Positions 12,667-29,084 are shown, counted from the first letter of the stretch. The stretch: DNA of 64,000 nt from Patescibacteria group bacterium (GCA_016861265.1 BOLA01000001.1:852136-916135), one strand, 5' to 3'. Numbers and translations: made by a program. The notes: generated by a model not told the origin, from the letters alone.

Positions 12667-13962
12667 ATGTTATTATTTTATATGTTTAATGAAGATGATC
12701 TTCTAAAAGGTGAAAAACCATTCAAAATCGGTGATTACTTATTACCAGGAGTTTTAGATTTAGCAGGGCAGCTAGAATTCTTGCGTACAGTTATGCCTAA
12801 CCCCGACTTAATTTACTATGGAGAATTTCCCCCCGAGTTTGAGTCTCCACTACTACCCTCCTCAATTTTAAATGAATACAGCAATGCTGCAGCAAAGTTT
12901 AGAGTCTTAATGACACTAATGGAAACTGCCGAATCAGAAAACCTATACGATTCAATAAACCAAGCCGTAGATACATATAGATCTATGTACCCTGCAGATT
13001 ATCAGGGCCTTGAAGTTACTTTCCTGGACGGGAGACTTATTGTGAGTATTTATAACCAAGATAACTTGAGTCTTCAGGTAATTATTGAAAAATCCGACAA
13101 ATCATGGCATGTCACTAAGTCTATGATTCATTTTAAACTCTACGAATATAACTTTGAGATTAGGGACAATTTACAAGGTAACGAGGTTGTAATTATTTAT
13201 CCTCAAAACGATAATCTCGGCATTATTCCTCATGTTCGAGATTATTCAGCAATTGCCTCCATAAGAATTCCTAACGACGAAGTAGAATGGTATATAAATA
13301 TTTTTAATGTAATAGAACTCAGAGACGATAAAGATACTGTCTTATATGATTATTTTACTATAGCCCCAGGCAGGAAAAGAGTCATTGATATTCATGAAGG
13401 CAATAATGTATACGAACAAATAATAATTTATCCTAGTGACCACGGCATAAGCATTCAAAAAATAGAAAGGACGAAACAAGTTCTGCCTGATGGGCAAATA
13501 GAAACATTGAGTCGATATTTAAAAGTTGTGGAAGCGGAAATTGATATAAATGCATTAAAAGTACGAGCATTAATTTCTAGAAATCAAAATCTTGAATCTC
13601 GTGTAAGTTTAGTAAAAAAACAAGGTTCTGAACTTCCAAAATCTACAAGAGTAGAATATTTTAAAAGAAAAGGAATTAAATCCTTAGATGTCAGATTTAG
13701 AGATGACATGTCCATTAGCTCAATTCTTGTCGATGAAAAGTTATATTTAGATGGTGAATTTGATTTATTTTTATCTACCGAAGGATATTATATTTTTGTA
13801 CTTGGCGATAACTCAAGGCGAATACCGGTAAGTTTTAGTACTGATTACACAATAGCTGTTCCAGAAGAAAAAATTGGGCCAGTATTTGATGTTGTGGATA
13901 ATAACATGATATTACCATTCTCTAGTGCATCGGGATTGGTAAGAGTAGTCAGTTTGAATTAA
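12667..13962 (+). CDS. hypothetical protein
   Basis: An intact 431-aa ORF with host-like composition. Confidence 0.4.
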   Translation: MLLFYMFNEDDLLKGEKPFKIGDYLLPGVLDLAGQLEFLRTVMPNPDLIYYGEFPPEFESPLLPSSILNEYSNAAAKFRVLMTLMETAESENLYDSINQAVDTYRSMYPADYQGLEVTFLDGRLIVSIYNQDNLSLQVIIEKSDKSWHVTKSMIHFKLYEYNFEIRDNLQGNEVVIIYPQNDNLGIIPHVRDYSAIASIRIPNDEVEWYINIFNVIELRDDKDTVLYDYFTIAPGRKRVIDIHEGNNVYEQIIIYPSDHGISIQKIERTKQVLPDGQIETLSRYLKVVEAEIDINALKVRALISRNQNLESRVSLVKKQGSELPKSTRVEYFKRKGIKSLDVRFRDDMSISSILVDEKLYLDGEFDLFLSTEGYYIFVLGDNSRRIPVSFSTDYTIAVPEEKIGPVFDVVDNNMILPFSSASGLVRVVSLN

Positions 13963-14040
13963 GTGAAATGACCGGTCTTAAGGCAACTCTGTTGCCAGCA
14001 AAGCCGAACCCGGAATAATTAGCGTATTGCCCAGTACTTC
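13963..14040 (-). other. tRNA-Lys 3'-end-like fragment (T-arm and acceptor copy with a 25-nt insertion)
   Basis: The minus strand reads TTCCGGGTTCGG-[CTTTGCTGGCAACAGAGTTGCCTTAAGA]-CCGGTCATTTCAC, against TTCCGGGTTCGAGTCCCGGTCACTTCAC in the intact tRNA-Lys 8 bp away. Confidence 0.4.
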
Positions 14041-14047
14041 ACAAAAG

Positions 14048-14119
14048 TGAAGTGACCGGGACTCGAACCCGGAACCAACTGCTTAAAAGGCAGCTGCTCT
14101 ACCATTGAGCTATCACTCC
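14048..14119 (-). tRNA. tRNA-Lys (anticodon UUU)
   Basis: It has a manually folded cloverleaf: acceptor GGAGTGA/TCACTTC, D-arm GCTC-AATGGTA-GAGC, anticodon arm GCTGC-CTTTTAA-GCAGT and T-arm CCGGG-TTCGAGT-CCCGG. CCA is not encoded. Confidence 0.75.
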
Positions 14120-14474
14120 ATACACTAAGGCTCGTGAATTATATCTAATCCCCAGGCTCTTGTCTACCGAGTTTGAATTCAGATACCAGAAGTAGGTAAT
14201 AACTTTAGCGATTATTACTCAAAATTTCCGTTATTAATACGCCTGCCGATAAGATTTTACAACTTTATGACTTCTTCTGCAAAATTAAAGAAATCGCCCA
14301 AAGCCTTTTAGAGCCTAATCAATCGCAATTGATGCTTTAATGTCTAAAAGTATATATAAGTTTCTGGCCAAATTATCACAAAGCTTAGTCGCTAATTACA
14401 TGAAAATGTAATGATACTAAATTCCCCCTGATCATAGTAATTTAACCTTCGGATAGAAAAGGCAAAATATCCTC

Positions 14475-14840
14475 CTAGCTATCAAAACTACCGGATGATG
14501 CATATATCTCATATTCGCTAGTAGTATCAACTGGGAAATCTAGTATTTTAGTCTTAGATATAATCCTCCCTATGCCTCGTCTGTTTATAACGACTTGTGC
14601 GACATTATCTTTCACTCCTAAAAATTCTCCATTAATTACTTCTGGTAATACGTGAGGAGGTTTATGAATTATTGCAACCTTATACCCTGTCTCTATTTCC
14701 TTAAAACTGGAGTACCTTATAAATCCATCTGATTCAATCTTCTCACGAAGTTGCCTAGTATGGGATTGAATGTGAACCTTGTCATAACCATAACCACTGC
14801 CCAAATCACCACTTTCTAGTCCGTACCAATTGAAGTCCAT
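14475..14840 (-). CDS. small protein ending in a Ser-rich tail (SSGSFDS). It is the last gene of the kinase/nucleotidyltransferase operon and may be an RRE or substrate-like protein.
   Basis: A 121-aa ORF lying 14 nt downstream of the kinase gene on the same strand. Confidence 0.4.
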   Translation of the reverse strand: MDFNWYGLESGDLGSGYGYDKVHIQSHTRQLREKIESDGFIRYSSFKEIETGYKVAIIHKPPHVLPEVINGEFLGVKDNVAQVVINRRGIGRIISKTKILDFPVDTTSEYEIYASSGSFDS

Positions 14841-14853
14841 ATGATTACATTTA

Positions 14854-16014
14854 TTAAAGTAATTTGATTTTTTGTATTAAGTAATTAAAATTCTTTCTGT
14901 AGTCAAAGCCAGATGATACTGAATAACTTTTTGTATTTTTAAATATTTGTATTAGTTCTTTTCTTCTTTCTTCTGTTTTTAAATTGGTCATTTTTGTTAA
15001 ACTCTTGAAAAGCATAACCGTAGGTGCAAGGCTTACTTCTAAAAATCTATCAACAATTTCAGTGAGGCTATTTTTCTTAATTGATATGCCAGACTTATTT
15101 TTATCTAGAGAAACCTTTAAAACATGGGTTATTTGATCGGTTGAAAGATTACCTTTACTTTTGGATAGAGCATCAAAATATATCGACATTTGTTCTTTCT
15201 TCCCAAGTTCGAATAGTTCTTTTTTCTTCATATGTGCCATATCTAAAAAAGCATTATTGATAATGCCAGCGTTAACAAAGAAATCTTTAAATTCTAAGTA
15301 TGTACCGACTCTGATATTGAAATAGTTTCTTATATTATAATTAAGTATCGCCCCATATCTCGTAACATATGTTGTTTCCTCTGTAATGATTTGCCAGCCA
15401 CTTGCTAAAAACAACAAAGCAAAAGTTGTTTTCCCACCTAAAGATGAATTACTGAGAAGAATATTGTTTTTCCCATCACTTACTAACCCACCATGCACTG
15501 CGTATAAGTCACCGTATAATAAGTACGGTGTAAGCAATAAAATATTAATCATAGTCAATGCTTTTTTCTCATTTTTAACTGCCATTAAGCATTCGCTAGA
15601 TTCCGTATTATAAATATAATAAAAATGATCGTAGCATTTGATAATGTAAAATTTATTATCAACTGTGCATTTTGAGCCAGAGGTATTGTGTGTTGCTAAG
15701 TTAAATTTCTTTACTCTCGGATTAGTAGACCATTCCGCGTGTAGAAATATCAACTCAATCTTTTGGAAAATATCTTCGTTTTCTAAGATAAAAGCTTTGA
15801 TGTTATTACGATTATTTTTCTGTGAAGTGCTTAATAGTGTATTGAAAGAATGACTAAATTCTATTAAGTGATCAGAACATAAGTCATAATTACAAGTTAT
15901 AGTTGTTATTAGATTATCACTAATCAAACTATGTACAGTATGGCTTGATTCATTTGTTATAGCTTTTAAACTATCAATAAAAATTTCGTTTACTTTTGCG
16001 GTTAAATCATTCAT
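14854..16014 (-). CDS. HPr-kinase-C-terminal-domain-like P-loop serine kinase
   Basis: YAVHGGLVSDGKNNILLSNSSLGGKTTFALLFLASGWQIITEETTYV matches the HprK_C pattern (HG.lv...G.llLitG.SG.GKSt.AL.L...G..lvaDD). Confidence 0.55.
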   Translation of the reverse strand: MNDLTAKVNEIFIDSLKAITNESSHTVHSLISDNLITTITCNYDLCSDHLIEFSHSFNTLLSTSQKNNRNNIKAFILENEDIFQKIELIFLHAEWSTNPRVKKFNLATHNTSGSKCTVDNKFYIIKCYDHFYYIYNTESSECLMAVKNEKKALTMINILLLTPYLLYGDLYAVHGGLVSDGKNNILLSNSSLGGKTTFALLFLASGWQIITEETTYVTRYGAILNYNIRNYFNIRVGTYLEFKDFFVNAGIINNAFLDMAHMKKKELFELGKKEQMSIYFDALSKSKGNLSTDQITHVLKVSLDKNKSGISIKKNSLTEIVDRFLEVSLAPTVMLFKSLTKMTNLKTEERRKELIQIFKNTKSYSVSSGFDYRKNFNYLIQKIKLL

Positions 16015-16028
16015 AGAAAATCCAGTGT

Positions 16029-17051
16029 TTACTTATAATTTTTTATAATATCGTATGAAAATAGTCTATCTATCAAACTTCCAGTATCTTCCATCTTTTT
16101 TTCAGGCTTATACTGGTCAAAAATTACTGTCATAATATTATCGCTTATATAACTATATTTCTGATAAAGTAAATTAACATTGTTTAATGACAGTATCTCT
16201 GGAAAAATCTCAGCGGTATAATTTAGTGTAAAAAACACATGTTTATCAAAACCGTACTTTAGAGAGTCTTCGAATATTTGGTCGATGTTAATTTGTTCGA
16301 AATATTTTTGGATAAAAGTATATATATCAACAAATTTATATAAATCCAATACCTTTCTTTTTTTTACAAGGTCTAATAAGGCTGAATCTTTGTAAAGGTG
16401 GCTACACAGATGGATAAATAGGTGTTCTTCTTTTAACGAATAGATTGAAAAGTTGTCATCACTAGAAATGAGAACTCGTTCCTCCAAAAAATAATCTACC
16501 ACTCCATTAGAGGTGTTTGGCGTCCAGTCTAAAGAAAAATTAACATCGATATCAATAGTTTTAATAGTTATTTCATTAAGTATTTTAACAAAAGGAGCCA
16601 TTTCACCTCTAGTATTTATAGATTGCGTAAGTGTGTGTTGGTCAAATTCGTTAACAATATCTTTACTATAATCATACTTGCCTTGCAAAAAACCTAAATC
16701 ATACAAAATCCCTTTTACTTTTTGAATTGATTTTTTTGATACTAATATATCTATATCATTAAAAGCTCTAGTACCTGAGGGGTAAATAGTACTTGATAAG
16801 ACTGATCCTTTTAAGAATGTATGTTTTACATTTGCTTCCGATAACTTTGAAGAAATGCTTTTAATATATTCTTTTTGTAAATCTGTTCTTATGCTTTGTG
16901 CCTGATGGATCATATAAATTGTGAAAAAAACAGGAAAATCTAGTTTTCTTACATCGATGGAGTTTACAACTTGATATGCAAGGCCAGCAACTCGGTGGTA
17001 GCATAAGTATCCTAAAACTTCGATCCAATTTAAAGTTTTATCACTCAGCAC
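16029..17051 (-). CDS. uncharacterised nucleotidyltransferase (PF14907-like, MNT/pol-beta superfamily)
   Basis: GSVLSSTIYPSGTRAFNDIDILV is a G-S...DxD nucleotidyltransferase motif. The ORF is about 340 aa, typical for this family, and appears to start with GTG. Confidence 0.5.
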   Translation of the reverse strand: MLSDKTLNWIEVLGYLCYHRVAGLAYQVVNSIDVRKLDFPVFFTIYMIHQAQSIRTDLQKEYIKSISSKLSEANVKHTFLKGSVLSSTIYPSGTRAFNDIDILVSKKSIQKVKGILYDLGFLQGKYDYSKDIVNEFDQHTLTQSINTRGEMAPFVKILNEITIKTIDIDVNFSLDWTPNTSNGVVDYFLEERVLISSDDNFSIYSLKEEHLFIHLCSHLYKDSALLDLVKKRKVLDLYKFVDIYTFIQKYFEQINIDQIFEDSLKYGFDKHVFFTLNYTAEIFPEILSLNNVNLLYQKYSYISDNIMTVIFDQYKPEKKMEDTGSLIDRLFSYDIIKNYK

Positions 17052-17208
17052 TTCAATAAGTCTTTCATTTTTTTTATTGCCTAATTTTACTATCTCTAGT
17101 ACAGCATTATGTTCTTTTTTTATAGTGGTTTCTTTATTAAATATATAACAGGAATGATAATATGAAGACGAGGTAAAGTCAAATCTGTCCAGTAAATCAG
17201 TTGATTAG

Positions 17209-18144
17209 ATGCAATTAGTATGGTATAAATCTTTTTTAGAATTAAAAAGTTTTATGAATATGCTTGATAACAAATATCATTCTTCAAAAATCTGTTTAGG
17301 AACATGGCGAATGGGAGGAGACGTTAAGCCAAATCCTAATAATGATGATGAAAAAGACATTGATGCCATTAAATATGCAATCAGTAAAGGTATTTCACAT
17401 ATAGATACCTCAGAAAGCTATGCAGATGGCAAATCTGAGTTGCTCGTTGGAGAAGCAATAAAAAAGATATCTAGGGACAAATATTTTTTAGCTACTAAAG
17501 TTCGTGAATATAATCTTTCTTATGACAGTGTTATTAGCTCCTGTGAAAAATCTCTACAAAGACTTAATGTTCCAAGCATTGACTTATATTACATCCATAA
17601 ACAAAATCCACTCATTCCCATTGAAGAAACAACTAGAGCCTTAAATAAGCTCATTGATACTGGACTTATTAAACATATAGGGCTGAGTAATGTCGGAATT
17701 GCTACGATAAAAAAATATTCTCAACTACTAAACAGTCCAATTTATGCAGTTCAAAATCAATATAATCTCGTTTGTCGTGAGTCTCAAAGAAAAGGTGTTA
17801 CAGATTATTGTAAACTAAGTGGAATTCAATTCATTGCGTGGAGACCTATTCTACTTTCATATCCGGGAGTTGTAGATCCCTATTATCATACTGGCACGTA
17901 CAGATTATTGGATGAAATGGCTAAAAAATATAACAAAACAAATACACAAATTGTGGCCAAGTGGCTTGTACAACAAGATGGAGTTTCTATTGTTTTTAAA
18001 AGTTCTAACAAAGAACATATTGATGAAATTTTAGATATTGAAAATTTTAAGCTTTCCGATAGTGATTGGGAAATATTAGATAAAGATTTTCCAGTGCAAA
18101 AAGATTTAGGGTGTACTGCTGACGTTTATTTTGAGTTATCGTAA
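17209..18144 (+). CDS. aldo/keto reductase family oxidoreductase
   Basis: It carries GTWRMGG, IDTSESYADGKSE and LLDEMAKKY, consistent with an AKR (alpha/beta)8 barrel. The true start is probably the internal ATG near 17254 (MNMLDNK). Confidence 0.7.
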   Translation: MQLVWYKSFLELKSFMNMLDNKYHSSKICLGTWRMGGDVKPNPNNDDEKDIDAIKYAISKGISHIDTSESYADGKSELLVGEAIKKISRDKYFLATKVREYNLSYDSVISSCEKSLQRLNVPSIDLYYIHKQNPLIPIEETTRALNKLIDTGLIKHIGLSNVGIATIKKYSQLLNSPIYAVQNQYNLVCRESQRKGVTDYCKLSGIQFIAWRPILLSYPGVVDPYYHTGTYRLLDEMAKKYNKTNTQIVAKWLVQQDGVSIVFKSSNKEHIDEILDIENFKLSDSDWEILDKDFPVQKDLGCTADVYFELS

Positions 18145-18224
18145 CAAATCGTTATCCTTATATCGCAATTTAGTTTGCTTAATGAGATAATACAATTTAT
18201 TTTACCAAGTCTAGAAAATGATCC

Positions 18225-19373
18225 ATGGTTAATATTATACAAAGAGATACAAAAATCAAAGAACCATATGAATCCCTTTACAAATTGAATATTGGCCTAT
18301 CTATTGACGAGTTTGAAGCAGAAGAGGCAATGTTGGAGATTTTGAAGGAAGAAAATTTACAAAAAAGAGTAAGTCTTTTAACAATGTTACTAAATGGGGT
18401 TATGATTAAGGGACCTTCTGTTTCTGAAGTAAAAGGATTAATAAACGCCTCATTATCGTTGGATGGTATATTAAAAACACCAAGACCAAAAATTATTTTG
18501 CCAAATAAAGAACTCTTAGTTGGTGTAGCGTCAAGTGGTAAAAAGGGGTTTAAAACAATAAATATTACTACACCTGCTAGTTTTGTTGCGGCTGCTTGTG
18601 GTGCATTTACTGCAAAGGCATGTTCACATTCAACGTCTTCCAAAACAGGTTCCTCTGATCTTTTAGAAATAATTGGTATCAATATAAATATCCCTTTCAA
18701 AGAAAAAGTCACAATATTACAAGAAAAGAGAATTGCTTTTTTTTCAATTGAAGACACAACTCCAAATTTTGCTAAAGTTTATGAAGGCGTATTTTATGCT
18801 CCGCACGCCATGAGTTTTGCCCTAGCTGGACTTAGCTTTCCGGTCAAAATTGATGCTCTTGTATATGGTTTGTCACATCCCAATGTTAAATTGTCGTTAG
18901 AGGTGTATAAAGAATATGGTTTTAAAAATGTTTTAGTCTACTCATCTAGTGAAGACGGTGTACATTATTTAGATGAATTACCAATCTCTGGTTACGCTAA
19001 TATCATAGGTATGAAAAATGGCAAGGTTGTCCGGAAAATATCAGCTAATATAAAAGATACATTTCCTTTCAATCCAAGTAATAGTTTAAAAGAATTAGCC
19101 GAAAAGGAAACGAAAATTGATAATGTCAAGGCTTCTCTAAGAGTACTAAATGGTATAGGCTTAGAAAGCCATACTGATGCTATATGCATTAACGCAGCAC
19201 CTATTATTCTTTTAGCGGGAAAGGTTAAGTCGTTAAAAGAAGGATATTTATTGGCAAAGAAAAATATTCAGGAAGGAAAAGTATTTAAATTGTTTTTAGA
19301 AGTGGTTGAATTGTATGGGGGAGATTTAAATCAAATAACGAATCTATTATCAGAATCTGATCCTTTAATTTGA
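18225..19373 (+). CDS. TrpD-fold protein (anthranilate phosphoribosyltransferase / glycosyltransferase family 3-like) with degenerate catalytic motifs. It is possibly YbiB-like.
   Basis: TINITTPASFVAAACGAFTAKACSHSTSSKTGSSDLLE aligns with TrpD [38 protein letters not shown]. GTGGD is replaced by ASSGKKG and KHGN by KACSHS. Confidence 0.5.
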   Translation: MVNIIQRDTKIKEPYESLYKLNIGLSIDEFEAEEAMLEILKEENLQKRVSLLTMLLNGVMIKGPSVSEVKGLINASLSLDGILKTPRPKIILPNKELLVGVASSGKKGFKTINITTPASFVAAACGAFTAKACSHSTSSKTGSSDLLEIIGININIPFKEKVTILQEKRIAFFSIEDTTPNFAKVYEGVFYAPHAMSFALAGLSFPVKIDALVYGLSHPNVKLSLEVYKEYGFKNVLVYSSSEDGVHYLDELPISGYANIIGMKNGKVVRKISANIKDTFPFNPSNSLKELAEKETKIDNVKASLRVLNGIGLESHTDAICINAAPIILLAGKVKSLKEGYLLAKKNIQEGKVFKLFLEVVELYGGDLNQITNLLSESDPLI

Positions 19374-19465
19374 AAGCAAGGTATCAGATATTTAAAAAGA
19401 ATTATGCTCTATATGCCTGTCTGTGCTATAATCCATTAATATTTATGTTTGTTAGATTATAAAAT

Positions 19466-20578
19466 ATGAATTCAAATTTTGAGGATCCGAATAAAGAAAA
19501 AGAGGAAAGACAGACTATTATAGAAAGGCCTATTGCTGAACAGCCGCTCGCATCTTTTGAGCAACAGGAGAGTATCCAATGGAAAGTTGAAATCTTTACA
19601 GGTATTAGACCAACTGGGGATTTGACGGTGGCTAATTTTGTAGGGGCAGTAGCACCTATTCTTGAATTGCAAAATAATGGCAAACATCCTATGGTTTTTG
19701 TAGCTGATCTTCATGCAATGACAGATAAAGAACCTAAGATAGCAATGCAATTCACCAATGATGTTGTTGCAGATTATATAGCTTTAGGACTCAATCCAGA
19801 GCAAACGGATATATTTGTACAGTCTACAATTGCTCAACAGGTTGGACAACTCACATTATATTTAATGAGACATATTTCAATTGCTGAGCTTATTAGAGTA
19901 CCTACATTGAAAGATAAACTGAAAGATGGTCAAAGAGAAGAAAATGCAAGTGCTTTACTAGCAACTTACCCTGTCATGATGGCTGCAGATATTTTAATAC
20001 AGAGAGCAAAAGAAGTTCCTGTTGGAGAAGATCAAGTTCCACATATTGAAGTGACAAGATTACTTGCTAAACGCTTTAACGCACAATATGGTCAAACCTT
20101 GTATGTACCCAAAGTTCAACAAGTAGAAACATTAAGAATACGATCTTTGAAAGGTGAAGGTAAGATGAGTAAAACAAATCCCAATGGTGCTATTTTTTTA
20201 ACTGATAGCCTTGATGAGGTTGCAAAAAAAATTAAAAAGGCTGAAACAGCATTTGCAGGAGAAATGAGTCCTACTCTAGCAAGTCATGTTACTCTAGCAA
20301 AAAATCTAACCTATAAACCAGAAGATAAAGTTCTAATAGATGAGATAATAGAAGCACATATGCAGGGGCAAACTGTAATGGGTGATTTTAAAAAGATATT
20401 TACAGAAATTACATTAAGGTTTATAGAAAATTTCCAACAAAGAAGGGCACAAGTAATGTCCGATCCTACATATATTCCATCTATTCTAGAATACGGAGCT
20501 AAAAAGGCAAGAGAAAATGCGGACGAAACATTAGGTTCCGTTTACGAAGCTATGACTAGTGGCGCAAAGGAGGGATAA
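19466..20578 (+). CDS. trpS: tryptophanyl-tRNA synthetase (class I; TIGN-type HIGH variant) with an N-terminal extension of about 40 aa
   Basis: FTGIRPTGDLTVANFVGA resembles the Bacillus-type SGIQPSG..TIGNYIGA, with the KMSKT (KMSKS) motif downstream, and PVGEDQVPHIEVTRLLAKRFN. Confidence 0.7.
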   Translation: MNSNFEDPNKEKEERQTIIERPIAEQPLASFEQQESIQWKVEIFTGIRPTGDLTVANFVGAVAPILELQNNGKHPMVFVADLHAMTDKEPKIAMQFTNDVVADYIALGLNPEQTDIFVQSTIAQQVGQLTLYLMRHISIAELIRVPTLKDKLKDGQREENASALLATYPVMMAADILIQRAKEVPVGEDQVPHIEVTRLLAKRFNAQYGQTLYVPKVQQVETLRIRSLKGEGKMSKTNPNGAIFLTDSLDEVAKKIKKAETAFAGEMSPTLASHVTLAKNLTYKPEDKVLIDEIIEAHMQGQTVMGDFKKIFTEITLRFIENFQQRRAQVMSDPTYIPSILEYGAKKARENADETLGSVYEAMTSGAKEG

Positions 20579-20628
20579 GATTCTTAGGAGTGCAAAAAAT
20601 ATGGTATATATAAATTTGTATATTTCTT

Positions 20629-21726
20629 TTATGATTTGATCTGGTGTGCAAATTTTTGTGCTTGTTTACTAATCAGGTCTGCATCTTCAAAATAATTAAT
20701 CCCGATTGCACTTTTAACTCTCTGTGTCGTTTGGGAAGCCACATTACGTGCTTCTCGGCTGCCTTCAAGCAATATTTTATAAACTTGTGGAATGTTTTTT
20801 TGATATTCCTCTCTCCTAGTACGAAGTGGCATTAATTCTTCTTGAATAACATCATTTAAGAAACTTTTTATTTTCGTATCGCCTAGACCTCCTCTTCTGT
20901 AATGATCTTTCAGCTCATCTAAATTATTATAACCAGCTAGGTATCTTTGTAAATGATTAGGTTTACAAAAAGCATCTAAATAAGTAAAAACTGGATTATT
21001 TTCAACAGTGCCGGGATCTTCTACTTTTAAATGATTGGGATCTGTAAACATCCCCATAATTTTTTTCTTAATTTCCTCTGGCGAGTCTGCAAGGTAAATA
21101 CCATTATTTAAAGACTTGCTCATTTTCGCTTTCCCATCTAAGCCTGGTAATCTGCTACAAATATCATTCTCTGGTAATGATGCATTTGGTTCTACCAAAG
21201 TTTCTCCATAGATAGAATTAAAACTTCTAACAATTTCTCGTGTTTGTTCTATCATCGGTAGTTGATCGTCACCTACTGGAACAATATTAGCGTCAAATGC
21301 TGTAATGTCAGCAGCTTGGCTCACTGGATATGTCAAGAATCCAGCAGGAATACTTTTATTAAAACCTCTTAACTTTATTTCTTCCTTTACAGTAGGATTC
21401 CTTTGTAATCTTGCTACTGTAACTAAATTCAGAAAATAATATGTTAACTCACATAGCTCAGGAATCTGGGACTGAATAAAGATAGTAGATTTATTGGGGT
21501 CAATACCACATGCTAAATAATCTAATGCTACCTCTATTACATTTTGTCTTACTTTTTCAACATTGTCTGCGTTATCAGAAAGTGCCTGAGCATCCGCGAT
21601 CATAATAAAGATACCATCAAACTTTCCAGAGTTTTGCAATTCAACTCTTTTCTTTAATGATCCAACATAGTGACCTAAATGCAGTTTTCCTGTGGGCCTG
21701 TCCCCAGTTAGAATAATATTTTTCAT
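20629..21726 (-). CDS. trpS: tryptophanyl-tRNA synthetase (canonical HLGH-type)
   Basis: It carries TGDRPTGKLHLGHYVGSL (HIGH), KMSKSLNN and VPVGDDQLPMIEQTREI, and is 365 aa. Confidence 0.8.
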   Translation of the reverse strand: MKNIILTGDRPTGKLHLGHYVGSLKKRVELQNSGKFDGIFIMIADAQALSDNADNVEKVRQNVIEVALDYLACGIDPNKSTIFIQSQIPELCELTYYFLNLVTVARLQRNPTVKEEIKLRGFNKSIPAGFLTYPVSQAADITAFDANIVPVGDDQLPMIEQTREIVRSFNSIYGETLVEPNASLPENDICSRLPGLDGKAKMSKSLNNGIYLADSPEEIKKKIMGMFTDPNHLKVEDPGTVENNPVFTYLDAFCKPNHLQRYLAGYNNLDELKDHYRRGGLGDTKIKSFLNDVIQEELMPLRTRREEYQKNIPQVYKILLEGSREARNVASQTTQRVKSAIGINYFEDADLISKQAQKFAHQIKS

Positions 21727-21738
21727 AAAGAAACAGTC

Positions 21739-22935
21739 TTAATTCTTATATAAAAATAGTTCGTTGTATGTATCAATATCTTTTTCATATTTCGATTCTT
21801 CCCAAAGGGTTTTAATTTCAATAAAAAACTTCAAATATTCATACTTTATTTTAGTCCAATCTTCGTAATTTTGTTCTAGATTTTCAAAAGCACTTTTGGC
21901 TTCTATTAACTTGTCGGGACTCCAATTAGAAGCAAGTATCATCATTTGTAAAATAACCTCCTCATTTCTCTTCCCACAGTCAATAATTTTCCTATGTAAT
22001 TCCTCTTCGCTATCTCCAACATTAATAGAAGAGTCTGGAATGCTTTTTGACATTTTAACATAAGGGAAAAGACCACCAATAAGCTTTCCATACAATGCAC
22101 CGATTTCAGCATCTTGATGAACCAAGCTATCCACGCCTCCACTCTTCACTTTCATCCTATTAAGTGCAATTCTTGCTAAATACGGATGGTGATGTTCTTC
22201 CAATCCTACCGGCACTATTACACCTCGTTTTTTGTCACGAACTATCGGTAGGATAATATCTGTCATTGTATATGTCCTACTCACCATTTTTGAGAAATCG
22301 TTCCCAAGCAATTGTAATCTTTTATACATATCGTTAGTTACTTCACGATTTTCGAGCAAATCTTCAGTACTTAAAACACTAGAAACAAGTGAAAACACTC
22401 GGGAATGATCATGAAAGTTATGTGTTCTAATTTCACCGTTTTTTTCATTAAATCCCAATTTCTTAATAAAAGATATAAACTGATAGGAATTTCTTATTAG
22501 CTCATTTAATGGCTTTTGTCTTGAATTTAATGCACTTAATTCAGAAATGATTATATGAGTATAAATACCTGTTTGTTTTTGAAGTTCAAGTACTCTAAAA
22601 ATAGAAGAAAGTGTACCGGCCGTTGGGGAATTAGTAGGACCAAATCCTGTTACAATAGCTAACTCGGTCGTAGGAATTTTATTAAAGATTTCTAAATTAT
22701 CGTAACACAAATATTTAGAATTTAATTCATTGTGCTTCCCATAGCCATGTAATTGAATATTATTAGGAAACTTAACATACTTAAAATCTTCGATTATTTT
22801 GCCAAGTTTGTTATTGGAATATTCCAAATCCTTTAATGCATGCTTAAGATCATTTGCAACTTCTTCAATCGATTTATTTTGTTTCTCTGCTATTTCTTTT
22901 AATTCATCATTTGACAAATTTAAATTGGTTTTCAT
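21739..22935 (-). CDS. divergent TrpRS/TyrRS-family class I aminoacyl-tRNA-synthetase-like paralog with a degenerate HIGH motif
   Basis: KMSKSIPDSSINVGD and VPVGLEEHHHPYLARIA align to TrpRS. The HIGH position reads TGFGPTNSPTAGTL, with no His. A coiled N-terminal extension of about 100 aa is present. Confidence 0.5.
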   Translation of the reverse strand: MKTNLNLSNDELKEIAEKQNKSIEEVANDLKHALKDLEYSNNKLGKIIEDFKYVKFPNNIQLHGYGKHNELNSKYLCYDNLEIFNKIPTTELAIVTGFGPTNSPTAGTLSSIFRVLELQKQTGIYTHIIISELSALNSRQKPLNELIRNSYQFISFIKKLGFNEKNGEIRTHNFHDHSRVFSLVSSVLSTEDLLENREVTNDMYKRLQLLGNDFSKMVSRTYTMTDIILPIVRDKKRGVIVPVGLEEHHHPYLARIALNRMKVKSGGVDSLVHQDAEIGALYGKLIGGLFPYVKMSKSIPDSSINVGDSEEELHRKIIDCGKRNEEVILQMMILASNWSPDKLIEAKSAFENLEQNYEDWTKIKYEYLKFFIEIKTLWEESKYEKDIDTYNELFLYKN

Positions 22936-23300: not shown

Positions 23301-24104
23301 ATGAACATAAAAGAAGTGGTGATTGAGCCAATATATAAATTATTTAGAGCAGGTCAAAACGCATATTATGAGGCTGGGTTAAATCGTTATCAAGGAGATA
23401 AGTATGACTTAACAACCTTACAAATATCAAATTACTTTTCATTTAGGACTTCTCCGTTTAATGTAGATTTAAGGAAGTTAGCATACTATACAGAACATCA
23501 AATGATACCAGCTCCTAAAAGAGTTGGTATCAATTCTTTTTTAGGTGGAAGTATAGGTAAATATAAATACAAAACATCATTAATGCTTTGGTATATTGGT
23601 GAACTTAAAAAAAGAGGCATTAAAAGTCAGGATGAATTAAGACTACACATTTATAACTACTTTCACACTGAAAATTTACCTCCAAAGCCTGTTTCAGATA
23701 CGCCTTTTGCTGAAAGGTATATTTATACTTGGAGAATAAGCAAAATAACACCTGTACTTTTACCTGAATTTGAAGACTTTAATATTTATATGGAAAATGA
23801 AGAGCCAATTCCTGCAAAAAAGGCCACCTACTATTTTGAAGGTAAGCCATTTGATCAAATTCTCTTCTTTGAACGAAACCTAACAGAAAAAGAAAATGAA
23901 TTTCTTAAGATCTTACGAAAAAACAAAGAGTTTTTAAGTGCAAGTGGTATCAAAACCTATATTCTCAATTCTAAAGAAGAAGTTGAACAAAAAGACATTA
24001 TGGATTTATTCGTGTTTAAAGACTATCCAATAGTTTCAGATGATGATGATAAAAAATCTTATCGAGATTTACTTAATAAAAAATATACTTTTCAAAATAT
24101 ATGA
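23301..24104 (+). CDS. hypothetical protein (element cargo)
   Basis: A 267-aa ORF preceded by a long AT-rich leader. Confidence 0.4.
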   Translation: MNIKEVVIEPIYKLFRAGQNAYYEAGLNRYQGDKYDLTTLQISNYFSFRTSPFNVDLRKLAYYTEHQMIPAPKRVGINSFLGGSIGKYKYKTSLMLWYIGELKKRGIKSQDELRLHIYNYFHTENLPPKPVSDTPFAERYIYTWRISKITPVLLPEFEDFNIYMENEEPIPAKKATYYFEGKPFDQILFFERNLTEKENEFLKILRKNKEFLSASGIKTYILNSKEEVEQKDIMDLFVFKDYPIVSDDDDKKSYRDLLNKKYTFQNI

Positions 24105-24346
24105 TCAAACAAAACGATGAACTGTATGAAATAATATCTTTAAAGGTAAGAAAGCATAATTTGTTGAAAATGATCAAGCCTAAAGCAATTGAAAATCTAA
24201 TCAAGATGATACTTTGGCAGAAAGATGGGGTAATAACACTGATAATTAATAATGCGGAAATTACTAAGTTAAAACACGATTTTGAGATACGTTTAAATGA
24301 GGAAGGAGATTTAAAGACTGACGATAAGACAAAATTTATTAAGTAA
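24101..24346 (+). CDS. small hypothetical protein
   Basis: An 81-aa ORF overlapping the upstream stop (coupled). Confidence 0.3.
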   Translation: MIKQNDELYEIISLKVRKHNLLKMIKPKAIENLIKMILWQKDGVITLIINNAEITKLKHDFEIRLNEEGDLKTDDKTKFIK

Positions 24347-24477
24347 TTCTAATTAACCTTAGCTAACTTGATTGTTTAGAGAGGTCTAAGTTTCAGAAAA
24401 AAGAACATGTTTCTTAATCTGAGATTTGGATCTCTTTTTTTTGTATATATTTTACTTTTTAACAATTTACCAAAAAT

Positions 24478-24876
24478 ATGTCGCTAAACACACCAAAGAT
24501 CATTAAGAACTTTTTGAATGCTAATGAGAAAACAGAGAATAACTTTATCACTGCACTACTGTTAGATAAATCACTATTATTAAAAGAAAAAGAATTGTTG
24601 CTTTTTATCTTTCATTTAGCAAATCGTTCTGGTGATTTAAAAGTAAGTACCAAACAATTGGCTACATTTACTCTTACAGATTTAGAAAAACTCAGGATTG
24701 CCTACAGTGCTAATGCGAGTATAGCTTTTCAAAAACTTCACAGATTAGAAATTATTAATTGGAATAAAACTGAACATACCTTTGAAATCAATAACGACTG
24801 GATAGATGAAATATTAACTAGAGATCAAAACACTAGACTAGAGTTCTTTTACAAGTTATTACTCAAACAAAACTAA
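24478..24876 (+). CDS. hypothetical protein
   Basis: A 132-aa ORF whose stop overlaps the start of the next gene. Confidence 0.35.
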   Translation: MSLNTPKIIKNFLNANEKTENNFITALLLDKSLLLKEKELLLFIFHLANRSGDLKVSTKQLATFTLTDLEKLRIAYSANASIAFQKLHRLEIINWNKTEHTFEINNDWIDEILTRDQNTRLEFFYKLLLKQN

Positions 24877-25811
24877 TGTCTGAAAAGGTTGTTTTAAAAA
24901 TCTCAAAAGAGTTAGATAGAGGTAAAGCCTTTGTGCAAATTTTATCTAACCTAATTCGTAGTCCTGAAATTTCAGATTCAGAATTTAGAACATTCTTAGC
25001 TTTACTTGATTTTAAATGGAATGGGCAATCTAAAATCTTTCCGTCATTAACAACTCTTGAAAAAATACGTCATAAAAGCAGAAAAAGAATTGTTGCTCAT
25101 TTAAAAGGTTTAAAACAGATAGGTTTAATCTCTTATCAGAAATCCTCTGAAAGAAATAGTAATGAATATTTTTTTAACAAGATTGAATTTGAAGCAATAG
25201 ATAAAACGCCACTAGTAGACAAAAGTAAACTAGTGTACAAAACTACACCATCGCTAGGGTCGAAAAGTACACTACAGATAGTGGCGAAAACTACACCCGA
25301 AAGATACGAATATAAGAATACTAAATTTAATAAGACGTTAGCTGAAAACGACTTAAAAAAAATTGCTGATAAAAAGTCACAACGAAGTGACTTTGGAAGT
25401 TTCAAAGTTGATCCCAAAACAGAAGATTTTACTAAATACAATCCAGAAGCACTTGAATATGCAAAGTTACTGGACAATCTTGAAGATATTAAGTTTTATC
25501 AAAACTTGCTTGATGAAAAACAATTTACTCACGAAGAATTGCAATCTGCTTTCTGGAAAACATGTAACGAAATAAATACAGATAAAAAAGATGGCAAAAT
25601 TTTCTGGAAAAAGCCAGGAGCTTTATTTAATAAAAACTTGAAAGCAATTTTAGAACGAAAGAAACAAATTAAGAACGGCTTAGATAAATTAACAGACAGT
25701 AAAACAATTCCTAAAGAAAAAACAGAAAACGAAAAGTTGTCAGAATTTAATAAAAAACGAAATCATGCACTTAATTTATCTCAGAAATTACTAAATAGAG
25801 AAGGAATATAA
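24876..25811 (+). CDS. putative HTH replication-initiator-like protein (tentative)
   Basis: The N-terminal winged-helix-like segment (RTFLALLDFKWNGQSKIFPSLTTLEKIRHKSRKRIVAHLKGLKQIGLI) is followed by a charged region. It lies immediately upstream of the origin-like repeats. Confidence 0.35.
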   Translation: MSEKVVLKISKELDRGKAFVQILSNLIRSPEISDSEFRTFLALLDFKWNGQSKIFPSLTTLEKIRHKSRKRIVAHLKGLKQIGLISYQKSSERNSNEYFFNKIEFEAIDKTPLVDKSKLVYKTTPSLGSKSTLQIVAKTTPERYEYKNTKFNKTLAENDLKKIADKKSQRSDFGSFKVDPKTEDFTKYNPEALEYAKLLDNLEDIKFYQNLLDEKQFTHEELQSAFWKTCNEINTDKKDGKIFWKKPGALFNKNLKAILERKKQIKNGLDKLTDSKTIPKEKTENEKLSEFNKKRNHALNLSQKLLNREGI

Positions 25812-25904
25812 CTGATGAACGAAGTGATGAAACTATGGTGAAACTGCTAATCCGAAAAAATGACTATTTTACGATCTTTAAAAACCTACCAAAGCGAGAG
25901 CCAC

Positions 25905-26165
25905 TAAACCTTACTAACTCCGAACGGGAGTGATTGGGTGCCCTCCTATCGGAGCCCACCCAATCACTCCCTCGACAAAGTTACACGTTGTGTTGTTTGT
26001 CGTCTGAGTTAGTAAGGTTTAGTAGGGTAGGTAGTAGGTAGTTAGTAATAGTAAGTTAGGTAGGATAGATAGAGAAGAATAAAGAAGAGAGATTGAGAAG
26101 ATAGAGATTTTAGGTAGGTTAGTTTTTAAGTATTTGTTGAGATTTATTATTTTTTAATTTTTTTA
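25905..26165. repeat. nested inverted repeats plus C-free purine-rich repeat tract (candidate ori, oriT or att region)
   Basis: The 18-bp inverted repeat ACTAAACCTTACTAACTC...GAGTTAGTAAGGTTTAGT encloses a perfect 15-bp hairpin GGGAGTGATTGGGTG-(16 nt)-CACCCAATCACTCCC (about 25926..25971) and the 7-bp CGACAAA...TTTGTCG. About 150 nt follow with almost no C on the + strand, containing TAGGTAG-like and GAGA/AAGA repeats. Confidence 0.6.
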
Positions 26166-26170
26166 TATAA

Positions 26171-27148
26171 ATGATTGGTTCAAATATTTTAAAAAGTTCT
26201 GATGTGGAAATTTTGTATACAGTGAGTATTTTTAAGTTTATTCCGCTTAAAGTTTTGGCTGATATTTTGATTGCTAAGAATATTTATAGTTTTTATCAAG
26301 GAGTTGCCAGAAGTATTACAAGACTCGAAAAACAGGGGTTGTTAAGAACTAAATACTATGCAAATCATTCAAAAATCATATTTTTATCAAAGACAGGTGC
26401 AGGAGTTTTATCAGTGAATAAAGGTATTCCACTAGAAAACATTAACTGTCCTGACCGAATTACTAATGTAAATTTCTTTGCCATTGAACATACAATTGAA
26501 GTGTCTAAATTGTTTTACATATTTTCTACTGAGTGCGAAAGATATGGATTTAAGCTAGTAGAATTCCAAGGAGATGCTTATCAAAGATACATATATTCTT
26601 TTAAGGAATGGATTAACAATGACCAAAAGAAAATAACTAAATATGTAATTCCAGATGCTTTTGTAAGAATTGATGTTGGAGATGAAAAGATTTATGAATT
26701 TTATGTTGAATATGATAAAGGTTCTGAATATTCAAAAGATATTGCAGAAAAATATCAAAAGTATTTTGAATACTATTCCCTTTCAGAAAAGTACAAGCTT
26801 AATAACGATGATAAGTTTCCATCTGTTTTATTCATAACGACAACTAAGAAAAGAATATTGAACCTTATTCCTGATATGCCTAAAAAGGATGGGAATAGAT
26901 ATGAGCTATACGGAAACAGAGGCTTAAGGAATGTAGTATTTCAAGGAATTGAAAACGCAAAGGGAGATACGAATCACGATAGTTACAGAATTCACAAGTT
27001 TTTGAAAGATGAAAACAAGTTTCTGTTCATTGAGTACGAAAGCCTATTAAAGAATAAGTTTGAAGCTACTTGGTTAAACTTTATTCAACAGCCAATTTCC
27101 TTACATTACTTTTTAACAAATCCATTTATTGAACCTAAATCTTATTGA
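26171..27148 (+). CDS. replication-relaxation-family-like protein (tentative)
   Basis: It has an N-terminal wHTH-like region (ILYTVSIFKFIPLKVLADIL...ITRLEKQGLL), as in the PF13814-type plasmid proteins. Confidence 0.35.
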   Translation: MIGSNILKSSDVEILYTVSIFKFIPLKVLADILIAKNIYSFYQGVARSITRLEKQGLLRTKYYANHSKIIFLSKTGAGVLSVNKGIPLENINCPDRITNVNFFAIEHTIEVSKLFYIFSTECERYGFKLVEFQGDAYQRYIYSFKEWINNDQKKITKYVIPDAFVRIDVGDEKIYEFYVEYDKGSEYSKDIAEKYQKYFEYYSLSEKYKLNNDDKFPSVLFITTTKKRILNLIPDMPKKDGNRYELYGNRGLRNVVFQGIENAKGDTNHDSYRIHKFLKDENKFLFIEYESLLKNKFEATWLNFIQQPISLHYFLTNPFIEPKSY

Positions 27149-27407
27149 TGAAAATCTAAAGTTTATAAATCAATTTGATATTGATTCTAAAGAAATTTCT
27201 GCTGAAAGAGCCAGAGAAATCTTGGGTTCAAAGGCTGACGGCTTGAATGATGATGAATTACAGGTTGTTATAAATATGGTGATGACTATGGCTGAAATAG
27301 CTGTCGGAGATTTTTTTAATAAAAAAGTACCAGAAGATGAAAAGAAGTTATATAATTTAACTGCAAATCAATCAAAAAGGGTAAAACGAAAGAAAACTAG
27401 ACTTTAG
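27129..27407 (+). CDS. small hypothetical protein
   Basis: A 92-aa ORF overlapping the upstream stop. Confidence 0.3.
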   Translation: MNLNLIDENLKFINQFDIDSKEISAERAREILGSKADGLNDDELQVVINMVMTMAEIAVGDFFNKKVPEDEKKLYNLTANQSKRVKRKKTRL

Positions 27408-27509
27408 TCTGTTATCTTTACAGATAAGGGGCTACTTGGAACAGTCTTTACCCAAAGATTGATTTGCACCAGGTAGTCCCTTTTCTGTTTAGTTTTTACT
27501 ATTTAAAAT

Positions 27510-29084
27510 ATGAACAAACCAAAAGCAGTCATTTACACTAGAGTTTCATCAGATAGACAGATTGATAATACAAGTCTTGCCGATCAATTAAAAAAAGGTA
27601 AAGAGTATTGTGAGCGAAGAGGCTTAGAATTCGTTACAGAATTTAGAGAAGAAGGAGAATCAGCAGAACTAGCAGATAGAACAATTTTGAAAGAAGCATT
27701 GAATTATTGTGGCTTAAAGAAAAATGATATTACATATTTTCTAGTATTTAAGTTCGATAGATTCTCTCGTTCTGTTGAAAACCACCACCTAATTAAAGCT
27801 ATATTAAGCCGTAGTGGAGTTAAATTGATCTCAATGACAGAAGAGACACCTGACACTCCGGCAGGAAGATTAACAGAAAATATGCTTGCAACAATAGCCC
27901 AGTTTGATAACGAAGTCCGAACTGAAAGATGTATTAATGGGATTAAAGCAAAATTAAGACAAGGTATTTGGGTTTATGATTCTCCACTTGGATATATGAA
28001 AGATACAAACTTTAAAGGTAGTGGTGCTAAACCAGATATTCCAGATCCAGCAAAGTTTGAAATTGTAAAAGAAGGATGGAAAATGATGCTAACTGGAAGA
28101 TATAGGTCAAAAGATGTTTTAGAGTTTTTTCATAAAAAGGGATTAAGAAATAGGTATGGGAATAAATTAATTGCACAATCTGTTTCAAAGATTTTTTACA
28201 ATAAGTTCTATGCAGGATTATTGTTTGTTGATAGTTTTGGAATTGAAGAAAAAGGACAGCACCAACCAATGATTACGCTAGATGAATTCTATGCAGTTCA
28301 AGCAATTTTGGCTAAATACAATAATGGAAATCAAGTTAAGCATTTAGGTTACAATCCAGAATTTCCACTGAATAAAACAATTAAGTGTACTTGTTGTGGG
28401 AAATTTATGACTGGTGCTTGGTCTAAACAAAAAGGAGTATTTGGATATTACGCGTGCAGAAGACCCGAATGTAAGGAAAGAGATAAAATCAAGAAAGCTG
28501 ATGCAGAGACTTCATTTATTGAGCTATTGGAGAGAATTACTCCATCTCAAGAATTAGTAGATTTATACAAGGAAGCAGTTACCAAAGTATATTTGAAAAA
28601 ACTTCGAGAGAAAGAAGATATACAAAGGCATATTAAAAGTGAACTAAATGAGCTTGAGGTTAGATTATCTAAACTTGAAGAGCTTGTTGAAACAGATGTC
28701 TATTCTGTTGAAAAGTTTAAAGAAAAGTCTAAACCACTTGTACATGAGATTGCAGTTAAGAAAGTATCACTTTCTGAAACAAACATTGATTTATATGATG
28801 CGGAGGAATGTGTTAATTACTCCGTAAATTTTTTACAACTTTTACCTAAATATTGGATATCTCTGTCTGTAAAGGCAAAACATAGATTGCATGAGGTACT
28901 TTTCCCCGAAGGTCTAATTCTCGAAAATGGAAGAGTTACAACCAAGGCATTAGCCCAGTTCTATAATGATATTGAAGCAATTTCAGATGGTAATGTCCCA
29001 TCTGGTACACCCGGAGGGAGTCGAACCCCCAACCTTCGGTTCCGAAGACCGCTGCTCTATCCATTGAGCTACGGGTGCGCATAA
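27510..29084 (+). CDS. large serine recombinase/integrase
   Basis: It has an N-terminal resolvase domain with the catalytic Ser (AVIYTRVSSDRQ), a recombinase domain and a zinc ribbon (CTCCGKF...YYACRRPEC), followed by a coiled coil. The 3' end reads through tRNA-Arg. Confidence 0.8.
   Translation: MNKPKAVIYTRVSSDRQIDNTSLADQLKKGKEYCERRGLEFVTEFREEGESAELADRTILKEALNYCGLKKNDITYFLVFKFDRFSRSVENHHLIKAILSRSGVKLISMTEETPDTPAGRLTENMLATIAQFDNEVRTERCINGIKAKLRQGIWVYDSPLGYMKDTNFKGSGAKPDIPDPAKFEIVKEGWKMMLTGRYRSKDVLEFFHKKGLRNRYGNKLIAQSVSKIFYNKFYAGLLFVDSFGIEEKGQHQPMITLDEFYAVQAILAKYNNGNQVKHLGYNPEFPLNKTIKCTCCGKFMTGAWSKQKGVFGYYACRRPECKERDKIKKADAETSFIELLERITPSQELVDLYKEAVTKVYLKKLREKEDIQRHIKSELNELEVRLSKLEELVETDVYSVEKFKEKSKPLVHEIAVKKVSLSETNIDLYDAEECVNYSVNFLQLLPKYWISLSVKAKHRLHEVLFPEGLILENGRVTTKALAQFYNDIEAISDGNVPSGTPGGSRTPNLRFRRPLLYPLSYGCA
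29004..29078 (-). tRNA. tRNA-Arg (anticodon UCG) with encoded CCA
   Basis: It folds manually as acceptor GCACCCG/CGGGTGT, U8A9, D-arm GCTC-AATGGATA-GAGC, anticodon arm GCGGT-CTTCGGA-ACCGA and T-arm GGGGG-TTCGACT-CCCTC, then A-CCA. Confidence 0.75.

Follow-up and report, generated by a model that had tools for sequence, protein, structure and literature searches.

What might bring two full-length tryptophanyl-tRNA synthetases (TrpRS), a divergent synthetase-like protein, and a protein with the fold of TrpD (anthranilate phosphoribosyltransferase) together in one bacterial locus? The locus lies in a 64,000-nt stretch of DNA from a Patescibacteria group bacterium (GCA_016861265.1, BOLA01000001.1:852136-916135), hereafter the window, to which positions refer unless another locus is named. 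The initial annotation had proposed a unit of four genes at 18225-22935, and open reading frames (ORFs) A, B, C, and D were all found there; the unit itself proved larger, as an aldo-keto reductase, a nucleotidyltransferase (NT5), and a kinase-like protein (U386) extend it to seven genes at 14854-22935. In our reading, to which we give about an even chance, this cassette is a horizontally spread unit of specialized metabolism whose product would be an aminoacyl-ribosyl metabolite, with B and C serving as donor supply, as immunity, or as both. The earlier idea of a tryptophan-related biosynthetic module gains support, since related cassettes carry tailoring enzymes and exporters. The seven genes are as follows.

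14854..16014, minus strand: U386, kinase-like protein; cassette-specific, recognized by fold match only
16029..17051, minus strand: NT5, nucleotidyltransferase; PF14907 (NTP_transf_5)
17209..18144, plus strand: aldo-keto reductase; PF00248
18225..19373, plus strand: A, TrpD-fold phosphoribosyltransferase-like protein of a "GSGKK" subfamily; 382 aa; PF00591
19466..20578, plus strand: B, full-length bacterial-type TrpRS of a "T(V/I)AN / KMSKT" lineage; 370 aa; TIGR00233
20629..21726, minus strand: C, full-length TrpRS of TrpRS-II (auxiliary) type; 365 aa; TIGR00233
21739..22935, minus strand: D, class-Ic synthetase-like protein; 398 aa; weak PF00579

A recurrent gene set and its sister versions

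D, TrpRS, A, the aldo-keto reductase, NT5, and a U386-like gene of about 380 aa recur together in more than 20 loci. As these loci are independent and keep the synteny of the set, its clustering is far beyond chance. The hosts, which include Patescibacteria, gut Bacilli, and Micromonosporaceae, range from 24 to 68% in G+C; the G+C content of the cassette follows that of its flanks over the same range, and D retains 75% identity when hosts of 32% and 60% G+C are compared. The cassette thus truly resides in very different genomes, and mis-binning was rejected as the cause of its apparent cross-phylum spread. Two layouts prevail. In the groundwater and candidate phyla radiation (CPR) type, a B-type TrpRS is found with D, U386, NT5, the reductase, and A, and there are no HAD genes; the gut and rumen Bacilli type comprises D, a Cof-type HAD, a C-type TrpRS, the U386 and NT5 pair, the reductase, a HAD, and A. 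The window cassette holds a B-type and a C-type TrpRS together and has no HAD gene.

Across all versions, the core consists of a D-like gene, a reductase, and a full-length cognate aminoacyl-tRNA synthetase (aaRS) of class Ic; only one version lacks an A-like gene, and most include a HAD phosphatase. The reductase is an aldo-keto reductase in 14 cassette loci, with an alcohol dehydrogenase (ADH) or a short-chain dehydrogenase/reductase (SDR) taking its place in other versions. Plasmid pBMB172 of Bacillus thuringiensis carries, at 110240-116636 of NZ_CP021438.1, D-like, A-like, ADH, HAD, and tyrosyl-tRNA synthetase (TyrRS) genes together with a major facilitator superfamily (MFS) transporter, and another genome combines A-like, HAD, D-like, ADH, and TyrRS genes. 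A Tyr-type gut metagenome-assembled genome (MAG; L032) has a Rel-type enzyme, a sulfotransferase, D-like, A-like, ADH, and Cof-type HAD genes, and two TyrRS genes; the latter lie in tandem after the cassette (13032-14291 and 14581-15825), share 84% mutual identity, and look as if the presumed target gene had been amplified. Micromonospora, Salinispora, Pilimelia, and Actinoplanes have A-like, D-like, SDR, flavin adenine dinucleotide oxidoreductase, TrpRS, and HAD genes, and the Actinoplanes cassette is bordered by an integrase on one side and tRNA genes on the other. In a Parcubacteria genome (L036), A-like, UbiA, D-like, SDR, methyltransferase, and B-type TrpRS genes are found with a MacB-type efflux pump beside them. 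A further gut MAG (L037) carries a HAD, a C-type TrpRS, an A-like gene, two radical S-adenosylmethionine (radical-SAM) enzymes, and a nucleoside-phosphorylase-like protein, followed by a radical-SAM/SPASM enzyme, an SDR, a D-like gene, and another radical-SAM/SPASM enzyme; a Prevotella isolate has a cassette of this L037 type without A.

The type of D co-varies with its synthetase neighbor: D proteins with TxGT at the position of the HIGH signature always adjoin TrpRS (of three different lineages), and those with HxGT always adjoin TyrRS. A constant core, variable tailoring genes, occasional exporters (MFS in the B. thuringiensis operon, a MacB-type pump beside L036), and an embedded essential enzyme together point to a specialized-metabolite cluster with a target-related gene. 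A link to SB-219383, a TyrRS inhibitor from Micromonospora, was rejected because the Micromonosporaceae cassettes carry TrpRS and not TyrRS.

Several cassettes, of both the Trp and the Tyr type, have directly on one side or the other a short (p)ppGpp synthetase/hydrolase of Rel type (about 480 aa; HD, RelA_SpoT, and TGS domains). Copies from different loci share 66-78% identity, and the window has none; the enzyme could either belong to the cassette or share its insertion site. Its positions, each within its own locus, are as follows.

L009: 5467-6909
L012: 8126-9556
L013: 2389-3828
L016: 18593-20047
L020: 8461-9936
L032: 6550-7995

The D-like family and its TrpD-fold partner

D had been described as a third TrpRS-like protein with a degenerate HIGH motif, an intact KMSKS, and an N-terminal extension of about 100 aa. 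The altered first motif (GFGPTNSPTAGTL at residues 97-109, 22609-22647), the KMSKS (residues 294-298, 22042-22056), and the extension (96 residues precede the first motif) are all present; the term pseudo-synthetase had to be dropped, as TxGT or HxGT is conserved throughout the family. D scores 30.5 bits against TIGR00233 (cut-off, 176.75), which places it outside TrpRS membership, and its Pfam match to PF00579 is weak (32 bits). No match to D was found among PDB sequences by phmmer, and a profile of the D family picked up nothing in the PDB beyond the KMSKS patch of TyrRS; the phage genome collection held no D homolog. The AlphaFold2 model of D (predicted local distance difference test [pLDDT], 81.6) has archaeal and eukaryotic TrpRS as its best fold matches (template modeling [TM] score, about 0.6; 11-18% identity) over nearly its whole length, and retains the whole TrpRS architecture, including the C-terminal helical domain. 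Several hundred homologs exceed 60% identity, in assemblies labeled WS2, Patescibacteria, Ignavibacteriales, Parvarchaeum, and Bacilli; about 400 D-like genes came out of the database searches in all. Since only 157 representative clusters matched the family in an exhaustive search of 1.84 billion proteins, D founds a separate small family, apart from real TrpRS and TyrRS. Its assignment as a cyclodipeptide synthase was rejected, as KMSKS is kept and the sole Pfam match is to the class-Ic tRNA-synthetase family PF00579.

At the HIGH position, 184 homologs read TxGT, 76 read HxGT, and 3 read HxGS; the window protein reads TAGT. When 32 diverse proteins of the family were aligned, the invariant residues included the Gly and the Pro immediately preceding this motif, both the Gly and the Glu in "GxxE" (at the GxDQ position), and the Ser that ends KMSKS; conservation is at least 90% for KMSK, for the Gly of the HIGH-position motif itself, and for the Asp at the TrpRS/TyrRS specificity position. 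In the window protein, this Asp (Asp226) lies in MTDII at 22252-22266, and GLEEH is found at 22192-22206. The variant at the HIGH position is a conserved family signature and not decay. Judged by these residues, D carries the class I aaRS core signatures, of HIGH type and KMSKS, and keeps what class I enzymes use to bind ATP and the amino acid; TAGT may support catalysis.

A matches PF00591 (E = 3e-27) and scores 127 bits against TIGR01245 trpD, under the cut-off of 199. Aligned to solved TrpD structures, it has SSGKKG in place of GTGGDG and KACSHS in place of KHGNRG, so that the replacement of both motifs reported initially was borne out; it retains SSKTGSSD (within residues 131-145) and the (L)DE metal motif (YLDE at residues 248-251). 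On the DNA, these elements fall at 18528-18548 (ASSGKKG), 18615-18659 (KACSHSTSSKTGSSD), and 18966-18977 (YLDE). All cassette-linked A-like proteins carry (A/S)(S/G)SGK(K/E), K..S(H/R)S.SS.(T/S)GS.D, and D(E/Q), down to 25% identity and including a 450-aa variant, and a canonical TrpD encoded in one of the same cassette loci has the usual motifs. The description of A as catalytically degenerate did not survive this comparison, because GSGKK/E is conserved in every cassette-linked homolog. A thus shares with TrpD the PF00591 fold, the SSKxGSxD motif that binds phosphoribosyl pyrophosphate (PRPP), and the DE metal motif, but differs in having GSGKK for GTGGD, K..S(H/R) for KHGN, a sub-cut-off score, and no other trp genes near it. 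The A-like alignments also show His or Asn at or next to the Arg position of the GIRSIFN segment of TrpD, an Arg that we take to be the anthranilate-binding one. A suggested likeness to YbiB did not hold: NF006564 gave 16 bits (cut-off, 257) and NF005635 gave 17.4 bits (cut-off, 287), against 127 bits for trpD, and placement in the TrpD2/YbiB DNA-binding family was rejected on these scores.

In most loci D lies next to A, and A-like and D-like domains are fused in three proteins (P0255, P0267, and P0258); a Cof-type HAD is fused to a D-like domain in P0284. Two further proteins, P0307 and P0347, have N-terminal regions of about 600 aa fused to a D-like domain, with no Pfam match in those regions. 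This coupling of a synthetase paralog to a phosphoribosyltransferase-fold protein, by adjacency and fusion, is shared with HisZ-HisG, an established case of an aaRS-like subunit on a phosphoribosyltransferase (as cited in PMC9437257). By analogy, a noncatalytic, Trp-sensing D might bind and control A, which lacks canonical GTGGD and KHGN and might need a partner, and the cassette would encode no antibiotic route but a primary or salvage pathway tuned by Trp (or Tyr). However, KMSKS and (T/H)xGT are strongly constrained in D, and a regulatory subunit would not need them. HisZ is purely regulatory, so that kept catalytic signatures are not expected in it; D, which keeps them, does not show a loss of the HisZ type. 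The Prevotella D stands with TrpRS and radical-SAM enzymes and without A, variable tailoring enzymes and exporters are ill-suited to a primary pathway, and here a cognate aaRS, a reductase, and tailoring enzymes accompany the pair. We therefore regard control of A by a sensory D as quite unlikely.

Could the altered motifs simply reflect decaying duplicates, that is, a pseudo-synthetase and a dead TrpD with no joint function? The altered canonical motifs and lesions in B of two relatives (see below) would agree with this. However, B, C, and D did not arise by recent duplication: identity between B and C is only 32%, and D, globally alignable to neither, resembles C solely in short stretches around the two signature motifs. 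Purifying selection on D and A is strong throughout the 24-68% G+C range of the hosts, synteny is conserved, and the fusions exist. With the conservation data contradicting it, decay is scarcely credible.

Two TrpRS lineages and the putative tailoring genes

B and C each score 247.9 bits against TIGR00233 trpS (cut-off, 176.75) and are TrpRS members, in keeping with the claim of two apparently functional TrpRS genes. B is not of the TIGN type that had been assigned to it. Its motifs are PTGDLTVAN (19610-19636), GEDQ (20024-20035), and KMSKT (20162-20176); the first signature, TVAN, has Ala for Gly and departs from the canonical (T/H)(I/L)G(N/H), while the rest of the enzyme is canonical. The N-terminal extension of about 40 aa was confirmed, there being about 40 extra residues, from the ATG at 19466, relative to solved TrpRS (best solved relative, 6DFU; E = 3e-49); its length and sequence vary among B-type relatives. 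A B-type TrpRS adjoins D in L006, L007, L008, L010, L011, L018, and L036 (46-78% identity), and T(V/I)AN was found in all B-type partners examined (L006, L007, L008, L011, L018, and L036). The Gly of the class I HIGH signature is almost invariant in class I synthetases, and its change to Ala in B-type TrpRS could alter the adenylate pocket. With a lineage that recurs in these cassettes and a shared Gly-to-Ala signature change, B as an ordinary housekeeping TrpRS was rejected, housekeeping status not being shown for it. In two close relatives, B carries lesions, namely a start codon changed from ATG to ATT in one and a 1-nt deletion in the Pro49 codon of the RPTG motif in the other (L031 6060-6330 and L029 3340-3620, one assembly each, compared with window 19400-19680), which are possibly sequencing errors.

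C is of HLGH type, as first described, with PTGKLHLGH at 21670-21696, GDDQ at 21262-21273, and KMSKS at 21112-21126. It is closest to TrpRS II of Deinococcus radiodurans (2A4M, 1YI8; E = 1e-117), and the suggestion that the duplicate TrpRS genes fit a self-resistance or auxiliary pattern is supported. C-type partners occur in cassette loci L009, L012-L017, L019, L020, L034, and L037. As with Deinococcus TrpRS II and the indolmycin-resistant auxiliary TrpRS of Streptomyces, C is a second TrpRS beside another type; the C-type genes here differ in forming part of a conserved cassette that also holds D and A. The annotated parts of the window and loci showed no gene for nitric-oxide synthase.

U386 has no Pfam, NCBIfam, or PADLOC match, and its 133 homologs are all without a name. 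Its AlphaFold2 model (pLDDT, 91) retrieved phosphoenolpyruvate (PEP) carboxykinase first in Foldseek (E = 1e-7; TM score, 0.42-0.45) and then HPr kinase/phosphatase, so that the modeled structure points to a kinase-like protein with the P-loop fold of PEP carboxykinase and HPr kinase. The family motifs HGGLV, SLGGKTT, and TEExTY are conserved, and are found in the window protein as HGGLV (15481-15495), SLGGKTT (15424-15444), and TEETTY (15367-15384). U386 is syntenic with NT5 in 15 loci. NT5 matches PF14907 (E = 5.9e-31), is always paired with a U386-like gene in Trp cassettes (42-76% identity across loci), and has a faint match to Lnu(C) in NCBIfam; nothing was significant against the PADLOC defense models, where NT5 gave a faint AbiEii match (E = 0.0076). 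The reductase matches PF00248 (E = 3e-62) and falls below every NCBIfam equivalog cut-off. In lasso peptides, an HPr-kinase homolog with a nucleotidyltransferase, or a sulfotransferase, tailors hydroxyls, as in paeninodin and pseudomycoidin of Firmicutes, where the kinase is of the HPr-kinase fold and the sulfotransferase is an alternative (PMC8498205). The cassette has no lasso-peptide genes or precursor, and U386 resembles HPr kinase by fold only. From this precedent and from the sulfotransferase that occupies the U386/NT5 place in the Tyr cassette L032, we propose a hydroxyl-decoration role for the pair.

These same genes invite a reading as a resistance or stress island, in which B and C would sustain translation under stress or against environmental TrpRS inhibitors and the other enzymes would inactivate such inhibitors instead of making one. 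C is of the stress-induced auxiliary TrpRS-II type, and auxiliary TrpRS give indolmycin resistance (PMC9437257); kinases and nucleotidyltransferases are classical drug-modifying enzymes, and the faint Lnu(C) match of NT5 is of this kind. A Rel-type (p)ppGpp enzyme adjoins several cassettes, and spread across phyla is typical for resistance genes. However, the presence of A, D, a reductase, and phosphatases, with a D type that co-varies with Trp or Tyr, is hard to explain as detoxification, and the radical-SAM, UbiA, and sulfotransferase variants resemble steps of product tailoring. We consider an island of this kind unlikely.

Candidate pathway, known relatives, and genomic setting

The gene set and its conservation, the pairing of D type with synthetase, the fusions, the conserved motifs, and the folds are observed; the following chemistry, target, and immunity role are what we infer for the biosynthetic reading. 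A would use PRPP or a related ribosyl-phosphate donor to give a ribosyl-5-phosphate conjugate, and the reductase would remodel the sugar, joined by HAD phosphatases in sister cassettes. D would bind Trp and ATP, or take Trp from Trp-tRNA, and join the tryptophanyl group to the ribosyl scaffold; a route through its own adenylate is possible because KMSKS is conserved. U386 and NT5 would decorate a hydroxyl group. The product, an aminoacyl-ribosyl (aminoacyl-adenylate-like) compound, would hit TrpRS, and B and C would supply Trp-tRNA and/or keep translation of the producer running, in the manner of AcmD/AcmF and SbzA.

The latter proteins belong to the closest precedents. In the ascamycin cluster, AcmD is an extra, more resistant alanyl-tRNA synthetase (AlaRS), and the AlaRS-like AcmF moves Ala from Ala-tRNA to a nucleoside sulfamate; SbzA of SB-203208 is like isoleucyl-tRNA synthetase (IleRS), and pairs of an aaRS and an aaRS-like protein occur in clusters for aaRS inhibitors, where the extra aaRS is resistant (PMC12945691). 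Divergent aaRS paralogs also serve as antidotes inside toxin clusters (PMC5388404; PMC9437257). The present cassette likewise combines an extra full-length cognate aaRS, an aaRS-derived enzyme, and scaffold and tailoring enzymes in one cluster. The ascamycin and SB-203208 enzymes attach an amino acid to a nucleoside-like scaffold, with the extra aaRS doubling as self-resistance; they derive from class II AlaRS or class Ia IleRS and are found in Streptomyces, whereas D derives from class-Ic TrpRS/TyrRS, keeps KMSKS, is coupled to the TrpD-like A, and occurs in Patescibacteria, gut Bacilli, Bacillus plasmids, and Micromonosporaceae. By analogy, the cassette may be kin to clusters that pair an aaRS-like transferase with its cognate aaRS. 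No paper describing the cassette was found in a literature search for this gene combination.

Several observations weigh against this biosynthetic reading. Among its annotated proteins, the window cassette has neither an exporter nor a HAD phosphatase. No significant match to antibiotic-cluster or defense models was obtained, and an Rfam scan that covered window 13.5-30 kb and the cassettes of eight loci gave neither a riboswitch nor a T-box within them; the sole T-box (L014) belongs to a neighboring gene with methionyl-tRNA-synthetase-type domains. Tiny-genome Patescibacteria and gut Bacilli make up many of the hosts, and neither group counts among the classical producers of antibiotics. If cassette-bearing genomes have no further housekeeping TrpRS, immunity loses its meaning, and B may be dispensable where C is present if its lesions in the two relatives are real. 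As for the substrate of D, both ATP and aminoacyl-tRNA could serve, and the data do not discriminate between them.

If the reading is nevertheless true, the cassette would represent an uncharacterized, widely exchanged pathway with new TrpRS/TyrRS-derived enzymes and a TrpD-like enzyme whose active-site loop has been rewritten. The logic of an aaRS-like transferase with a resistant aaRS would then reach class-Ic enzymes, beyond the nucleoside antibiotics of Streptomyces, and would extend to Patescibacteria, DPANN archaea, and reduced gut Bacilli, which are thought to be almost without secondary metabolism. TrpRS and TyrRS are validated antibacterial targets, for which the products might be new natural inhibitors, and two TrpRS lineages, of the T(V/I)AN and TrpRS-II types, may be naturally inhibitor-tolerant. 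The pBMB172, Micromonospora, Actinoplanes, and Prevotella versions, whose genomes are strain records and not MAGs, should permit direct tests. Complete genomes that bear the cassette include OZ007038.1, JAFYYX010000001.1, the 1.11-Mb source contig, Prevotella GCA_023217965.1, and Actinoplanes NZ_CP192102.1.

The constant presence of a TrpRS or TyrRS beside D would also suit a tRNA-linked role, in which D forms a heterodimer with B or C and builds or modifies aminoacyl-tRNA(Trp), perhaps by charging a Trp that is ribosylated or changed in some other way, to serve translation or tRNA-dependent transfer. Class-Ic enzymes bind tRNA across the dimer, a full cognate aaRS of several lineages invariably adjoins D, and the modeled D keeps the whole TrpRS architecture with its C-terminal helical domain. 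TrpRS II is reported to handle nitrated Trp (PMC9437257), and heterodimers have been suggested by Mukai et al. for other unusual TrpRS paralogs (PMC5370408). In one Bacilli genome, tRNA-Trp(CCA) directly follows the A-like gene (L014 18308-18381). However, this is the only such neighbor among the 26 loci scanned, none of which has a tRNA gene inside the cassette, and the exporters, like the varied tailoring enzymes, suggest that the product is a free small molecule. We judge a tRNA-linked role very unlikely.

The Mukai operons themselves deserve comparison. Operons of TrpRS-A, ORF1, and tRNA-Trp(A73) occur in CPR and DPANN organisms (Mukai 2017, PMC5370408). They likewise involve noncanonical TrpRS paralogs in the same kinds of organism, sometimes followed by a bacterial-type TrpRS, whereas the present cassettes have no tRNA gene and instead have A, a reductase, a kinase, and a nucleotidyltransferase; the two are set apart here by gene content.

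A related proposal, which we hold to be a long shot, is that D-like proteins form a new class-Ic branch that needs a dedicated TrpRS or TyrRS in order to act, perhaps in a heterodimer borrowing the tRNA binding of that partner, and together with it makes a modified (for instance ribosylated) aminoacyl-tRNA or an intracellular aminoacyl-ribosyl conjugate. If so, a new aminoacylation chemistry would exist across CPR bacteria, DPANN archaea, gut Bacilli, and actinomycetes, and its output would be a noncanonical amino acid or a substrate for tRNA-dependent transfer, not an exported antibiotic.

In the window, the seven-gene cassette is flanked by tRNA-Lys (14047-14119) and by a small integrated replicon (23301-29084), and the whole region is bordered by housekeeping genes. 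The replicon carries two replication-initiator-like genes (24876-25811, HTH_36; 26171-27148, Replic_Relax) and a large serine integrase (27510-29084; phrog_95, E = 2e-67), the ORF of which overlaps at its 3' end a genuine tRNA-Arg(TCG) gene on the opposite strand (29006-29078, minus). A search for direct repeats marking island ends at 13.9-29.3 kb gave chance-level matches only, and no attachment-site repeats were found for the replicon at 23301-29084; as flanking repeats are absent, movement of the cassette with the integrated replicon is not shown. A promoter and terminator scan did not rise above shuffled expectation.

Two other genes of the window stand apart from the cassette. A 691-aa protein encoded at 30543-32618 (minus strand) has PPDK_N, an ATP-grasp-like, PEP-utilizing domain, as its sole domain, and lies between small unknown ORFs near clpB/clpC. 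A very large ORF of 2473 aa at 36885-44306 (plus strand) is located between secA and an unknown 241-aa ORF.

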